64,000 bases of DNA, taken from NCBI GenBank assembly GCA_044228265.1, contig JBGAVC010000011.1, forward strand, positions 816 through 64,815, read 5' to 3'. The position numbers were made by a program, and so were the translations under genes. This DNA is from Pyrinomonadaceae bacterium. GTDB lineage: Bacteria > Acidobacteriota > Blastocatellia > Pyrinomonadales > Pyrinomonadaceae. This document shows, piece by piece, positions 32,152 to 57,279 of the stretch. The notes under the pieces are model-generated. The model had not been told where the DNA came from. It saw only the letters and a list, made by a program, of their open reading frames with translations, and searched no databases. Within the stretch, counting starts at the first letter, position 1. Every line of letters begins with the position of its first letter.

Positions 32152-32838
32152 TTATTGTTTCTCGAGCTCCTCGTTCGTGTCAGCCATCTTCTCATCGGCC
32201 GGAGCTTCTGCATTCTCTTCAGCTGTCGTCTGCGACTCAGCTTCTTTTGCCGCCGCAACCTCGGCTTCGCCCTCGGCAGCCTCGACGGCCGCCACCTGTG
32301 CCGGCGTTTCCTCGACTGGCGCCGCAACCGTTTCCTCAGCGATCGGCGTCGTCTCTACCTCTTCAGATTTTGACTTCTTGGCCTCTTTCTTCGGAGCGGC
32401 AGCTTTCTTCTTTTCCTTCTTCGGAGCGTCAGCCCTTTTCGCCTTGGCAGCTTCGGCCCTAAGTTCCTTCTCGGTCTTGGCCTTTTCCTCGCTCGTCACC
32501 TGGATCGTAATGTGGCAATAGTGACGCTGCTCGCGATAGGCCCTGCCCTGCGGAGCCGGTCGCATACGCCGGCGATTCTTCGTCGGGCCCATGTCGATGT
32601 AGCACAAGTTGACCCACAGATCGTCGGGGTCGATCGCTATGTTCTGCTGCTCGGCGAGAAACGTCGCGTTCGCGATCGCCGAATTAAGACATTTTGCGAT
32701 CGGCTGAGCGGCGCGCTTGTCGGTAAACTTGAGTATCGACAAAGCCTGCGACACATTCTGCCCGCGGATCAGATCGATCACGAGCCGGGCCTTACGAGGG
32801 CTTCCCTTGAGATATTTTGTTTTTGCTATCGCTTCCAT
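32152..32838 (-). CDS. rplV: 50S ribosomal protein L22 with a ~110-aa Lys/Ala/Glu-rich C-terminal extension
   Basis: The L22 core ([26 protein letters not shown]...HITIQVT) is followed by [62 protein letters not shown]... Confidence 0.9.
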
Positions 32839-34192: not shown

Positions 34193-34522
34193 CTAGATCG
34201 CTTCCGCGTAATCCACCATCGGTTCGCCCTTTCGCAGGGTTACGTAAGCTTTCTTGAATCCAGCACGGCGGCCCTCGATTCGTCCGCGTTTCTTTGCTTT
34301 TCCTTCGTAGAGAACCGTCCGCACCGCGGCGACCTTTACGTTGAAAACTTCCTCGACCGCGCCCTTGATGTCAGTTTTCGACGCCTTTTTGTCAACGCGG
34401 AACGTCAACACCTGTCCGGTCTTGCGGCCGCTGTTCTCTTCGGTCGAATCCTCCTTGAGGATCACGCTTTTTTCCGTGACGACGGGCGATTTAAGAATGT
34501 CCCAAACTCCAACCTTACTCAT
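34193..34522 (-). CDS. rplW: 50S ribosomal protein L23
   Basis: ...[13 protein letters not shown]...; the start overlaps the rplD end by 8 nt. Confidence 0.93.
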
Positions 34523-35402
34523 TTCCCTCGCCCTCCTTTTCGGCCGCCGGAAGCTCAGAGGCTTCGCCCGCCGGCGCTTCAGCCGGTTCCGTTACATCGG
34601 ACGGCTCTGTGTCTCCCGCTGCTTCCTTCTTGGCCTGTTTCGCAGGCTTCTCTTCTTTTTCGGCCTTCGGAGCTGCTTCCTTCTTGGCTTTCGGAGCCGA
34701 TTCCTTCTTTGCTTTTGGTTCGGCCGCAGGCGCGGTCTCCGCGACGTCCGTTCCTTCGGCCTTGGGATCCAACAGGCTGGTCAGTTCTTCGACCGCTGCT
34801 TTAGAGATCACAAGCTTCTCGTGATATATGATGTCGTAAATGTTCAGGCCAAAGCTGTTGGTCACCTTGGTCTTTTGGACGTTTCGCGACGAAAGCACGA
34901 GATTCTCGTTATCGAGGCTGTCCACGATCAAGGTCTTTGCTCGCTTTGCTTTCTCGACGAGGCCGAGCGAACCGAGTGCCGATAAGAATCCCTTTGTCTT
35001 CGGATCCTTGAATGTGATCTCGTCGACCACGATCAGGTTGCCTTCGCGAAGCCGTTCGGACAGTGCTGAACGTAGTGCACCGCGGCGCATCTTCTTCGGC
35101 ATCTGGTACGACCAGTCACGCGGCTGCGGTCCGTGAACGTTACCGCCGCCTTTCCAGAGCGGCGAACGCAAACTCGCGATGCGGGCGCGACCTGTGCCTT
35201 TCTGCTTCCAAAGCTTGCGGCCGGAGCCTGAAACGTTTCCGCGAGTTTTGGTCGCGGATGTTCCCTGCCGTCCGTTTGCCTGAAAATTTCGCACGGCTGC
35301 GTGGATCAGCGACTCGTTCAGCTCGACGCCAAACACGGCGTCCGACAATGCGATGTCGCCGACTTCTTTATTCTTTAAATTGCGAACCTTTACGGTAGGC
35401 AT
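34515..35402 (-). CDS. rplD: 50S ribosomal protein L4 with a ~85-aa Lys/Glu/Ala/Pro-rich C-terminal extension
   Basis: 295 aa from ATG 35402 ([21 protein letters not shown]...). The tail reads ...[66 protein letters not shown]... Confidence 0.92.
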
Positions 35403-35410
35403 AATTACCT

Positions 35411-35480
35411 CAGTGATCAGTGAGCAGTGATAAGTGAACAGTGAAGATCTCTCGTCACCCGTCACCCGTCACTCGTCACT
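35411..35480 (-). repeat. intercistronic hairpin with 7-nt periodic arms (CAGTGAN / CGTCACN family), rplC-rplD spacer
   Basis: CAGTGAT CAGTGAG CAGTGAT AAGTGAA CAGTGAA G ... CTCGTCA CCCGTCA CCCGTCA CTCGTCA CT. The right arm overlaps the rplC stop. The left arm ends 8 nt from the rplD ATG, abutting GAGG. Confidence 0.9.
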
Positions 35481-36539: not shown

Positions 36540-37727
<1,188 letters not shown>

Positions 37728-54080: not shown

Positions 54081-54179
54081 GAGGTTGTGAGCGGTCACGA
54101 GGCCCCGCGATCCATCGTTTGTCAACGGTTTTCTCAGACTTGCGCTATACTTGCGAACGTCTCCCGCAGGAGGGCTAAC

Positions 54180-54605
54180 ATGGAACGGTTTTTGGGAAGA
54201 TACTCGACTTACATTTACGCGATCTTGAGAATCGTTACGGGTTTTTTGTTCATGTGGCACGGGACCCAAAAGCTGTTTGGATATCCGCCTCAACAACTGC
54301 CGCCGGGCAGCCCGGCTCCTGGCGGCCTGTCGGCGACGATGGCAGCCGCGGGCGTCATCGAGACATTCGGAGGCCTGCTCATTATGGTCGGCCTATTTGC
54401 GGGCATCACGGCATTTATCGCTTGTGGAGAGATGGCTGTAGCTTTTTTTACGGCGCACTTTAGCTTGGCGGCGGTCCTGCCGATCCAAAACCGCGGCGAG
54501 CCGGCAGTTCTGTTCTGCTTTGTACTCCTTTACATTGCGTCCCGCGGCTCAGGGGTCTGGAGCATCGACTCGATATTTCGCACCGGCCCGGTCAGCGACA
54601 CCTGA
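54180..54605 (+). CDS. DoxX-family membrane protein
   Basis: 141 aa from ATG 54180: MERFLGRYSTYIYAILRIVTGFLFMWHGTQKLFG... Confidence 0.8.
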   Translation: MERFLGRYSTYIYAILRIVTGFLFMWHGTQKLFGYPPQQLPPGSPAPGGLSATMAAAGVIETFGGLLIMVGLFAGITAFIACGEMAVAFFTAHFSLAAVLPIQNRGEPAVLFCFVLLYIASRGSGVWSIDSIFRTGPVSDT

Positions 54606-54655: not shown

Positions 54656-55366
54656 ATGGAAAACTTTACCTCCACATTTGGAAATCCGGTCGCCGAAGCT
54701 GCTCCCGTTGAGCGTGCCGCGTTCATTCGAAAGACTTACTTGCTGCTTGCCGCGGCAATCCTCGCCTTTATCGTTGTCGAGGCTCTTTTCTTTGCATCGG
54801 GTATTGCATCGGTGATCGCGACGGTCGTCTTCTCAGGCGGCAGGATCGGGTGGCTCGGGATACTTGCCGGGTTTATGCTCATTTCATGGCTCTCTAACAA
54901 ATGGGCGGTTTCCGATGTCTCAAGCGCGGTCCAATACCTCGGACTCGGAATATTCATAGTCGCCGAGGCTGTCATTTTCGTCCCGCTCCTGACGATAGCG
55001 GCATACGCCTCCGGCGACCCGTCGGTGATCCTCAAAGCGGGCATCGTATCGCTCGGTTTGTTCGGCGGGCTTAGCCTGACGGTCTTCGTCACGAGGTCCG
55101 ATTTCTCCTGGCTCGCTCCGATCCTCGCGATCGGCGGGTTTGCGGCTCTCGGATTCATCGTTGCCAGTGCCATCTTCGGATTTACGCTTGGTAATGTCTT
55201 TGCGTTCGTAATGGTCGCTTTCGCCGGAACGGCCATACTTTACGAAACATCGAACGTACTTCACCGGTTCAACACGAAACAGCATGTCGCCGCGGCCTTG
55301 TCTCTGTTTGCAAGCGTTGCGTTGTTGTTCTGGTATATTTTGAGAATTTTCAGCTCTCGGCGATAA
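54656..55366 (+). CDS. Bax inhibitor-1/YccA-family membrane protein
   Basis: 236 aa, 7 TM. N-terminal [18 protein letters not shown] and a C-terminal charged tail. Confidence 0.8.
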
Positions 55367-55391
55367 TTGGCTGGAAAACGGGGGAAAAGAT

Positions 55392-55994
55392 ATGAAACTA
55401 CTGATCAAAACTGCCTTGCTGATCGCCGCGATGGCGATCGCCGCGATGGCCCAAACGCCGACGCCGTCTCCAGCAAAGGCACCGACGCCGGCTCCGACGC
55501 CGCCGCCGTACGACAAGCTCAAGGTCGGCGACATGGCGCCGGACTTCACGCTTCCCGACCTCACGGGTAAAGCAGTGAAATTGAGCGACTTTCGCGGCAA
55601 GAACAACGTCGTACTGGCCTTCTACGTATTCGCCTTCACAGGTGGCTGAACGAAGGAAATGCAGGGATACCAGGCTGGTATCGCCAAATTCGAAGAAGCA
55701 AATACGAAGGTTTTTGGGATCAGCATGGACTCGCGGTTCTCTAACGCGGCCTTTGCTGAAAAGATAGGTGTCACGTCATTCCAGATATTGAGCGACTGGA
55801 CGCGCGTGGCCACCAAAGAATACGGGCTTTACAACGAGGCAAGACAGTTCGGACGTCGAGGTACGTTCGTGGTCGATAAGGAAGGCAAGATCCAGCAGAT
55901 CGTGATCGACAACCTTGCGATCGATCCGACGAGCACGCTTGAAGCATGCAGCCTGCTTGAAAAGAAGCTTGTCGTCGCGCCGCCGAAACCATAA
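55392..55994 (+). CDS. exported AhpE-type 1-Cys peroxiredoxin with in-frame TGA (55647-55649) at the peroxidatic position; probable selenocysteine protein
   Basis: Two track ORFs (55392-55649 and 55659-55994) share one frame and are separated only by the TGA. The joined product is ...[22 protein letters not shown]...FQILSDW...[12 protein letters not shown]..., collinear with AhpE-like Prx (…FFPLAFTGIC…RGTFVVD…). It also has a signal peptide and a TP-rich linker. Confidence 0.7.
55664..55685 (+). promoter_or_regulatory. SECIS-like stem-loop 14 nt downstream of the in-frame UGA
   Basis: GG-GAUACCA-GGC-UGGUAUC-(G)-CC: 7 bp plus 2 bp with one bulged G and a G-rich apical loop. The UGA-to-loop distance is about 23 nt. 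Confidence 0.55.
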
Positions 55995-56009: not shown

Positions 56010-56270
56010 GTGAGTTATATGCAGACAACCAGCTACGCCCCGTGTCCAAAGTGCGGGGCGTCAGATGCAAAGGCTGTAAGCTTTACCTGGTGGGGCGGCG
56101 TGCTCGGCCCCAAGATGCTAAACCACGTCAAATGCCAGGCTTGCCGTGCCGCATACAACGGGAAGACTGGCAAGGACAACACCGCTGGGATCGCGATCTA
56201 TTTTGTCGTGGTCGGTGTACTGGCGTTCGTACTGATGGCAGTAATGATCGTCGCTTTCAAGGCTGTTTAG
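56010..56270 (+). CDS. small zinc-ribbon protein with C-terminal TM helix
   Basis: CPKC...CQAC pairs and a C-terminal IAIYFVVVGVLAFVLMAVMIVAF. The GTG start at 56010 or the ATG at 56019 is possible. Confidence 0.5.
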   Translation: MSYMQTTSYAPCPKCGASDAKAVSFTWWGGVLGPKMLNHVKCQACRAAYNGKTGKDNTAGIAIYFVVVGVLAFVLMAVMIVAFKAV

Positions 56271-56505: not shown

Positions 56506-57279
56506 TCACCTGATCAGCTCATCCGCCTTTTTCAGTATGTCAGTCAGCGCCGGGACGCCGAGCTTGCTCGCCGCCTTGCTCAAGCCGCCGTTCTTCGCAA
56601 CGTCAATTATCTCCTGTCCGATCTTTCGGGCAATGTCGGTAGCAAGATTGTCGTCCTTGACGCCAACTACATGCCAGCGGTCGCCGTTGCGTTTCATCTT
56701 CAGCTCAAGCGGATGCTCGGCCAATTTGCTCTTTACAACCGCCGAGTCGCCCGTCACTGTGATATCAAGATATCGACCGGCCCCGAGCACCATCAAGGCA
56801 AAAGGTACGTTCCCAAACGCCGCGACGCGGTCCCTGATGATCCGCGGCAATTCGGCCTTTGCACGTTCCTTGACGGACGGCATGATCGGCGTCGCGAGCT
56901 TTGCAAGCTGGCCAACGACAGCAGGCGGCAAACCCTTGCCATAAAGCTCGACCGCCTTACTCGTGACCTGCGGCACAAAATCCTCGACGACAGCATCGAC
57001 GTCGACGAGCGTGTTGACCGTGGTTTGATCGTCGTTGCGGGCCGCGTCCGCGATCAATGCCAGCGAGTACTGCGGTGTGCTTTTCAGGCTTTGCCAATAT
57101 ATCGCTCCTCCGATCGCCCCGATCACCGCGATCAGCAATAATGGCACCGCGATCAACAGTAGGATCTTTCCCGCACGGCCGGCACGACGAGGTCTCGGTA
57201 TGTCCGCGGCGGGTTCGGCAGACGGTTGCGGGTCCTTGTCCGGGCCGTTACCCGAAAGATCGACTGTAAACCTCGACAT
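56506..57279 (-). CDS. membrane-anchored protein of unknown function inserted between xseA and xseB
   Basis: 257 aa. Disordered N-terminus, one TM helix (ILLLIAVPLLLIAVIGAIGGAIYW), then a ~190-aa soluble domain. The gap to the xseA stop is 9 nt. Confidence 0.6.
   Translation of the reverse strand: MSRFTVDLSGNGPDKDPQPSAEPAADIPRPRRAGRAGKILLLIAVPLLLIAVIGAIGGAIYWQSLKSTPQYSLALIADAARNDDQTTVNTLVDVDAVVEDFVPQVTSKAVELYGKGLPPAVVGQLAKLATPIMPSVKERAKAELPRIIRDRVAAFGNVPFALMVLGAGRYLDITVTGDSAVVKSKLAEHPLELKMKRNGDRWHVVGVKDDNLATDIARKIGQEIIDVAKNGGLSKAASKLGVPALTDILKKADELIR

Follow-up and report, generated by a model that had tools for sequence, protein, structure and literature searches.

A probable selenocysteine peroxiredoxin with a predicted export signal in Pyrinomonadaceae-type soil Acidobacteriota

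A stretch of 64,000 nucleotides from a Pyrinomonadaceae bacterium (assembly GCA_044228265.1, contig JBGAVC010000011.1, positions 816 to 64,815; hereafter the window) carries a peroxiredoxin (Prx) gene that is interrupted by a single in-frame TGA. Two open reading frames (ORFs) on the + strand, 55392-55649 (85 amino acids) and 55659-55994 (111 amino acids), share one frame. Translation of the whole interval yields 200 sense codons, counting the codon at the interruption, with TGA 55647-55649 as the only internal stop and a terminal TAA. An earlier note on this DNA, made from the letters alone, had described the pair as one gene separated only by this TGA and encoding, on read-through, a single Prx of about 200 residues with the UGA at the peroxidatic cysteine; translation and the domain analysis below bear this out. 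The gene and its two central elements are as follows.

55392..55994, + strand: complete coding sequence (CDS) of the probable selenocysteine (Sec) Prx, 200 codons including Sec86, with stop codon TAA at 55992-55994; read from frame and stops, a Pfam match across the TGA and collinear orthologues in 22 genomes.
55647..55649, + strand: UGA codon, probably read as Sec86, the peroxidatic residue; it lies on the Cys column of PDB 2ywn/4g2e and of Cys homologues, and the TGA is kept in loci L001-L022 and contigs L028-L033.
55664..55685, + strand: hairpin resembling a selenocysteine insertion sequence (SECIS), with a 7-bp upper stem GAUACCA/UGGUAUC, the apical loop GGC (55673-55675), a bulged G and two more G-C pairs.

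With Cys placed at the stop, the translation matches Pfam AhpC-TSA (PF00578) over residues 45-169 and profile positions 1-123 of 124 (E=4.6e-35, 120.7 bits against a cut-off of 26), so the domain runs unbroken over the TGA. The best matches among proteins of solved structure are archaeal Bcp-type Prxs (E=2e-27 and 3e-23). Alignment of AFTQVCTKEM from the Sulfolobus tokodaii Prx (2ywn/4g2e) with AFTGG[TGA]TKEM from the window puts the stop on the peroxidatic Cys, and Cys homologues, which read AFTGGCTKEM at the active site, place it on the same column. No NCBIfam equivalog was reached: the scores were 78.7 bits against a required 140 for Bcp (NF006960) and 63.7 against 270 for PrxU (NF040737). 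A scan of the window for other frames split by TGA gave 15 candidates, all of which, except the Prx gene, were low-complexity or antisense frames.

A protein search for relatives returned dozens of 111-residue "half" proteins at 72-100% identity. Orthologue DNA was taken from one genome per species, giving 24 loci that cover Pyrinomonadaceae, Pyrinomonadales, Chloracidobacterium, Terriglobales, Bryobacterales and Myxococcaceae. TGA occupies the same column in 22 of these species-level loci (L001-L022), within the string AF(T)GG[TGA]TKE and down to 48% protein identity; the genomes that carry it belong to Pyrinomonadaceae, Chloracidobacterium and Terriglobales. It is likewise present in six of six metagenome contigs (L028-L033), which brings the further sequences confirmed at the DNA level to 28. 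Every DNA-checked sequence with a stop at this codon uses TGA (28/28). The two most distant loci, L023 and L024, have Cys (TGC) at the column, and Cys is also found there in 58 database homologues. Recurring as it does in relatives, an in-frame TGA on the catalytic column is more than a chance occurrence. Pairwise ratios of nonsynonymous to synonymous substitution rates (dN/dS) came to 0.076 for the part upstream of the TGA and 0.13 for the part downstream, at a dS of around 1.5; both halves of the gene are under purifying selection. The earlier note had proposed to look at this codon in relatives and had taken a shared stop followed by a decaying downstream half as the mark of a pseudogene. 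The stop is indeed shared, but selection acts on both halves, which speaks for a functional gene.

The bases flanking the UGA are themselves nearly fixed. The four-fold site of the preceding codon (GGC, in the region 55644-55650) is invariant in 21 sequences, and in 20 of 21 an A follows the UGA. These fixed bases may reflect a context requirement for recoding.

The hairpin sequence (GGGAUACCA-GGC-UGGUAUC-g-CC) begins 14 nt past the UGA, and its loop lies 23 nt past it. In the bacterial SECIS (bSECIS) model, the loop has 3-9 nt with a G within its two opening positions, the upper stem 4-16 bp, the UGA-to-loop distance is 16-37 nt and the minimum free energy is at most -7.5 kcal/mol (PMC13188914). 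The window hairpin agrees with the model throughout, having a 3-nt loop starting with GG, a 7-bp stem, a distance of 23 nt and a free energy of -8.7 kcal/mol. Its local folding z-score is only -1.28, and taken from a single sequence the hairpin is no more than chance would provide; its significance comes from comparison with relatives. All 21 Pyrinomonadaceae-type sequences, and 6 metagenomic forms besides, have the same hairpin, in geometry and offset alike (27 in total). Pair 24-32 is C-G in 14 sequences, U-A in 7 and unpaired in none, the switch from C-G to U-A combining a synonymous TAC-to-TAT change with a Gly-to-Asp change, and covariation was also found in two lower-stem pairs. Paired cells make up 87%, against at most 58% with the partner shifted one to three columns along. 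In 21 sequences, codons +8, +9 and +10 have invariant third positions, which correspond to the loop G and to U residues that pair with A26 and A23. Invariant synonymous third positions thus account for 3 of 8 hairpin codons versus 3 of 137 elsewhere, and four-fold sites outside the hairpin have a mean entropy of 1.57 bits. The hairpin is under RNA-level constraint.

The two Terriglobales forms (L021 2315-2375, L022 10142-10200) carry a different hairpin at the same offset, with an 11-bp stem, a 13-15-nt loop and -22 to -24 kcal/mol; its loop falls outside the strict bSECIS model. Rfam gave no match at the gathering threshold over the window, and around the gene there was only noise at E<=10.

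Residue conservation was counted over 79 aligned sequences, in which the following active-site positions of the window protein stand out.

55626..55628, + strand: Val79 (GTA), replacing the otherwise universal Pro of PxxxTxxC, from the alignment of the 79 sequences.
55638..55640, + strand: Thr83 (ACA), the Thr of the active-site TxxU motif (U, selenocysteine), present in at least 90% of the 79 homologues and aligned with the Thr of solved Prxs.
55857..55859, + strand: Arg156 (CGA), the conserved catalytic Arg of Prxs, invariant in 79/79.
55947..55949, + strand: Cys186 (TGC), the mature protein's sole Cys and a candidate resolving residue, invariant in 79/79 across Sec and Cys forms.

A check against the Prx motif found the Thr, the peroxidatic Cys/Sec column and the Arg in place and the motif Pro absent. 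At the Pro position, the 79 sequences divide into 57 with Pro and Cys, 20 with Val and TGA (entered as W in databases), one with Val and Cys (P0100) and the query itself with Cys substituted. Every Sec form read at the DNA level has V or I there. This Pro has been called "absolutely conserved" (PMC3322552), and the selenoprotein form of the motif is given as PxxxTxxU (PMC13188914). Val79 is a departure within a clear homologue and is no ground for excluding the protein from the Prx superfamily. A strict coupling of the Pro-to-Val change with Sec was rejected, as P0100 (Val and Cys) and L023 (Ile and Cys) exist; the link between Sec and loss of the Pro is strong, not absolute.

For the fold, P0100 served as proxy, being a natural Val and Cys homologue that is 48% identical to the window protein. 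Its AlphaFold2 model is a confident single domain (pLDDT 89.4), for which Foldseek returned Mycobacterium tuberculosis AhpE as the best PDB match (TM-score 0.89-0.92, root-mean-square deviation 1.2 Å), followed by Sulfolobus Bcp4. The model supports an AhpE/Bcp-like fold for the window protein. The signals for the subfamily differ: structure favors AhpE, by way of the proxy, while sequence scores the archaeal Bcp-type Prxs slightly higher, and the invariant second Cys is unlike the 1-Cys AhpE. The "AhpE-type" label of the earlier note is hence matched by the structural comparison and not by the sequence ranking. In the proxy model, the Cys186 position lies in the C-terminal helix. Its invariance and its being the mature protein's sole Cys make the residue the obvious candidate for resolving the oxidized peroxidatic site.

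The N-terminal part of the protein lies outside the AhpC-TSA match and comprises two segments.

55392..55451, + strand: predicted Sec-type signal peptide of 20 amino acids, with predicted cleavage after AMA, before Gln21; read from sequence.
55452..55508, + strand: Pro/Thr/Ala-rich linker of 19 amino acids, variable in length and sequence among orthologues and absent in some.

The first segment has a Lys-containing n-region, a hydrophobic core and an A-x-A motif, a pattern that recurs in aligned homologues. Gln21 does not vary in a 15-sequence alignment and is kept in at least 90% of the 79 homologues, whose consensus also begins with a signal-peptide-like N-terminus, in agreement with the signal peptide and linker described earlier. 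Because the linker varies in length and sequence and some orthologues do without it, it is a spacer outside the fold. The protein is thus predicted to be exported, with a mature form of about 180 residues.

We consider it very probable that 55392-55994 is one intact selenoprotein gene and that its apparent stop is a Sec codon at the catalytic site. Several points weigh against this. A search that covered the 64-kb window and 384 kb of related loci found no selA, selB, selD or tRNA-Sec, and Sec decoding by the source organism and by Pyrinomonadaceae is a presumption. The bSECIS model is also satisfied by 34 of 150 random in-frame positions (23%) in the window's genes, which makes the hairpin weak evidence by itself, although its position and geometry, as given in the earlier note, agree with the model and it is conserved with covariation. 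It is moreover a small hairpin, the -7.5 kcal/mol threshold being reached by 12 of the 21 Pyrinomonadaceae-type sequences, and the covariation stems from few independent events. The evidence for the fold comes from the model of a 48%-identical proxy and not from the window protein itself. With Val in place of the canonical active-site Pro, ordinary peroxidase chemistry is an assumption, and export and the role of Cys186 are read from sequence.

The machinery was sought in several ways. ARAGORN returned no tRNA for the window and, for the 24 loci, no tRNA-Sec, and tblastn with Escherichia coli SelA, SelB and SelD and 17 acidobacterial-type SelBs matched only EF-Tu (36540-37727, in the ribosomal protein operon). 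Acidobacteria do include Sec decoders (PMC1794560, PMC5029168, PMC13188914), with recorded selenoproteins and a SelA/SelB/SelD set in Solibacter (PMC1794560). SelB is abundant in Acidobacteriota metagenomes, where the named matches are of the Solibacter/Bryobacterales type; relatives found with a Solibacter SelB query all had at least 74% identity and were of this same type. A search among 50%-representative sequences gave 150 diverse SelBs, the sources of the top 10 of which were not traced to Blastocatellia. A search of the literature available to the analysis found no paper on Sec in Pyrinomonadaceae, Blastocatellia or Chloracidobacterium.

The explanation that competes best with Sec insertion is that the UGA is decoded, but without selenium, through a suppressor tRNA (an acidobacterial allo-tRNA or a tRNA-Cys of the selC* type) or because near-cognate read-through inserts Trp, Cys or Arg. 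Allo-tRNAs of the 8/4 and 9/3 types, which are possible nonsense suppressors, occur in Acidobacteria (Mukai et al., PMC5389517), and other phyla are known to have tRNA-Cys opal suppressors that resemble tRNA-Sec and occur with a second SelB (PMC5389517); the lack of Sec machinery in the window and related loci would fit such decoding. However, that study did not report selC* tRNAs for Acidobacteria (PMC5389517), and a general suppressor would be costly, as TGA terminates 16 of the 45 long ORFs of the window, conserved genes among them. All non-TGA homologues have Cys at the column, the classic signature of a Sec/Cys pair, and the RNA-constrained hairpin stands at the canonical SECIS distance, whereas general suppression needs no hairpin. 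Trp, Ser or Arg at the peroxidatic site would inactivate the enzyme, yet purifying selection is strong. We therefore regard decoding without selenium as improbable.

The remaining alternatives dispense with recoding at this site or reassign the codon throughout. A nonsense mutation in an ordinary Cys-Prx would leave two decaying ORFs. From a single sequence, such a pseudogene is indistinguishable from a recoded gene, and gene callers and the NCBI annotation report only the 111-residue fragment, an outcome that the earlier note had anticipated. The same fragments are listed at NCBI for relatives as "redoxin/peroxiredoxin family" proteins (MCC6328076.1, MCC7307927.1, MBV9242248.1). A decaying gene is nevertheless very unlikely to keep the same TGA across 22 species-level genomes and 6 metagenome contigs while remaining free of other stops and of frameshifts, with low dN/dS on both sides and kept synteny, and the saturated synonymous sites argue that the loci are not one recent clone.

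Just as unlikely, in our view, is a split gene, in which an exported 85-residue N-terminal piece and a separately initiated 111-residue C-terminal piece would reassemble into a Prx-like fold. It draws on ATG 55659, three codons past the TGA, which opens the 111-residue ORF; that Met codon is a Leu codon (CTN or TTA) in 14 of 21 orthologues and a start codon in only 7. Furthermore, the C-terminal piece has no signal peptide and would not share a compartment with the N-terminal piece, and neither piece holds the catalytic residue.

Database records might suggest a genetic code that reads TGA as sense, since 20 full-length homologues have W entered at the catalytic column. In the W entries that were checked (P0033, P0035 and others), the codon is TGA and the database sequence is not reproduced under code 11; these entries appear to be code-4 gene miscalls on contigs of about 1 kb. 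Reassignment of TGA to Trp or Gly is the least likely explanation of all, given the window ORFs that end in TGA and the inactivity of a Prx with Trp at the peroxidatic position. The proteins recorded wrongly in databases include P0012, P0016, P0021 and P0033-P0039, as well as P0001, P0031 and P0080. Taken as a whole, the comparative results exclude pseudogene, split gene, sequencing error and reassigned code together, because the TGA is kept in relatives, both halves are selected, synteny is preserved, TGA stops genes elsewhere and the start of the second half is mostly absent.

A neighbor-joining tree recovers the main Sec clade as monophyletic, with a large clade of Pro and Cys forms as its sister. 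The Terriglobales Sec pair sits on another branch, together with one Pro and Cys form and with P0100. The separate branches and the distinct hairpins suggest at least two exchanges between Cys and Sec in this family. Repeated conversions are on record for Prxs at large: a 2006 survey counted 5 Cys-to-Sec events among 12 members (PMC1794560).

We propose the following course of events. While the mRNA is translated in the cytoplasm, the hairpin at 55664-55685 would act as a bacterial SECIS and recruit SelB with Sec-tRNA(Sec), so that the UGA 14 nt upstream of it would be read as Sec and not as a stop. The full-length precursor would leave through the Sec translocon, and the signal peptide would be cut off after Ala20. 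In the cell envelope, the Sec86 selenolate, positioned by Thr83 and Arg156, would reduce H2O2 or organic hydroperoxides and be converted to a selenenic acid, which Cys186 would resolve to a selenenylsulfide. An envelope thioredoxin-like protein might then reduce this bond again, itself supplied from the cytoplasm through a transporter of the DsbD/CcdA/ScsB type. In its most far-reaching form, this reading would make the gene the founding example of a family of cell-envelope selenoperoxidases, widespread in soil Acidobacteriota of the Pyrinomonadaceae, Chloracidobacterium and Terriglobales, that work with Sec and without the active-site Pro, form a selenenylsulfide of the Cys186 type and have switched between Sec and Cys at least twice with different SECIS hairpins; for this wider picture, we see the chances as evenly balanced.

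Prxs with a TxxU motif are an established Sec family (PMC1794560, PMC5029168, PMC13188914) and ranked seventh among bacterial selenoprotein families by frequency in a 2016 survey, with 91 proteins in 78 organisms (PMC5029168). The experimentally shown case is PrxU of Eubacterium acidaminophilum, with which the window protein shares the AhpC/TSA domain, a UGA in a TxxU context, widespread Cys homologues and a SECIS or SECIS-like hairpin downstream within the CDS. It is not an orthologue of PrxU, as judged from the NF040737 score given above. PrxU comes from an anaerobe and is a cytoplasmic enzyme of the AhpC/Prx1 type, whereas the window protein is AhpE/Bcp-like, has a predicted signal peptide and Val for Pro, and belongs to Pyrinomonadaceae-type Acidobacteriota.

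The closest solved fold to the proxy, M. tuberculosis AhpE (PDB 1xxu, 1xvw, 5id2; 32-33% identity over 150 residues), has the same compact domain and a similar active-site layout, F-x-x-x-F-T-G-x-C. AhpE is a cytoplasmic Cys enzyme with the motif Pro and a 1-Cys mechanism without a resolving Cys; the window family, in contrast, is predicted to be exported and carries a probable Sec (Cys in sister clades) and the invariant Cys186. Archaeal Bcp-type Prxs (S. tokodaii 2ywn/4g2e and S. solfataricus Bcp4, 3hjp) have a nearly identical active-site string, AFTxxCTKEM, but are cytoplasmic Cys enzymes with the canonical Pro, unlike the window protein. Export has its own precedent in the periplasmic PprX of Caulobacter crescentus, a cell-envelope Prx whose N-terminus carries a signal sequence; reduced by TlpA and ScsB, it is also the precedent for an envelope chain of peroxide reduction (PMC3322552). 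PprX, which we liken to the window protein by description only, is a PrxQ-type Cys enzyme that keeps Pro and Thr as well as Cys and Arg.

Sec-Prxs and exported Prxs are each already known, and for this reason the present gene does not overturn current understanding. What it adds is the combination of a predicted signal peptide with an AhpE/Bcp-like subfamily that has lost the motif Pro, occurs in Pyrinomonadaceae-type soil Acidobacteriota and is systematically misannotated. The whole clade is misrecorded, as 111-residue fragments at NCBI or with Trp at the catalytic position in metagenome catalogues. With corrected annotation, many Acidobacteriota genomes would gain a selenoprotein, and Pyrinomonadaceae-type soil bacteria would stand out as probable Sec decoders. 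If the protein is indeed an exported Sec-peroxidase, it would point to a selenium-dependent peroxide defense in the cell envelope of a dominant group of soil bacteria. To our knowledge, repair of over-oxidized Cys is not available in that compartment. Natural Sec forms without the motif Pro, set against Cys forms with it, also offer a comparison for what Sec buys a Prx.

Two membrane protein genes, both assigned by Pfam, precede the Prx gene.

54087..54605, + strand: DoxX membrane protein gene.
54656..55366, + strand: Bax1-I/YccA-type membrane protein gene.

DoxX, Bax1-I and Prx share a strand and are separated by 50 and 25 nt, and their order is kept in most Pyrinomonadaceae-type loci. From this arrangement, the three genes may form an envelope stress operon. 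The conserved synteny reads pckG, (MFS), DoxX, Bax1-I, Prx, a small Zn-ribbon gene, xseB, a gene of no known family and xseA. No TlpA, ScsB or DsbD gene adjoins the Prx gene in this neighborhood, and a CxxC motif scan found no credible thioredoxin-like CxxC ORF in the window. A sigma-70-like promoter match at 55340-55367 (+; TTGAGA, 16-nt spacer, GATAAT, 10/12) lies inside the end of Bax1-I, upstream of the Prx start; such matches are no more numerous in the region than in shuffled sequence.

Downstream, 56010-56270 (+) encodes an 86-residue protein that starts about 15-25 nt past the Prx stop and is kept in this position in many loci. It has an N-terminal zinc-ribbon-like segment (CxxC...CxxC), a C-terminal transmembrane helix and a weak match to Pfam Lar_restr_allev. 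Between xseB and xseA, a 257-residue ORF at 56506-57279 (-) has no Pfam match and an N-terminal transmembrane segment, and its position is kept in nearly all related loci. Elsewhere in the window, the ORFs at the expected rplV and rplD positions of the ribosomal protein operon (32152-32838 and 34515-35465, both -) carry Lys/Ala/Glu-rich C-terminal extensions of about 100 residues each.

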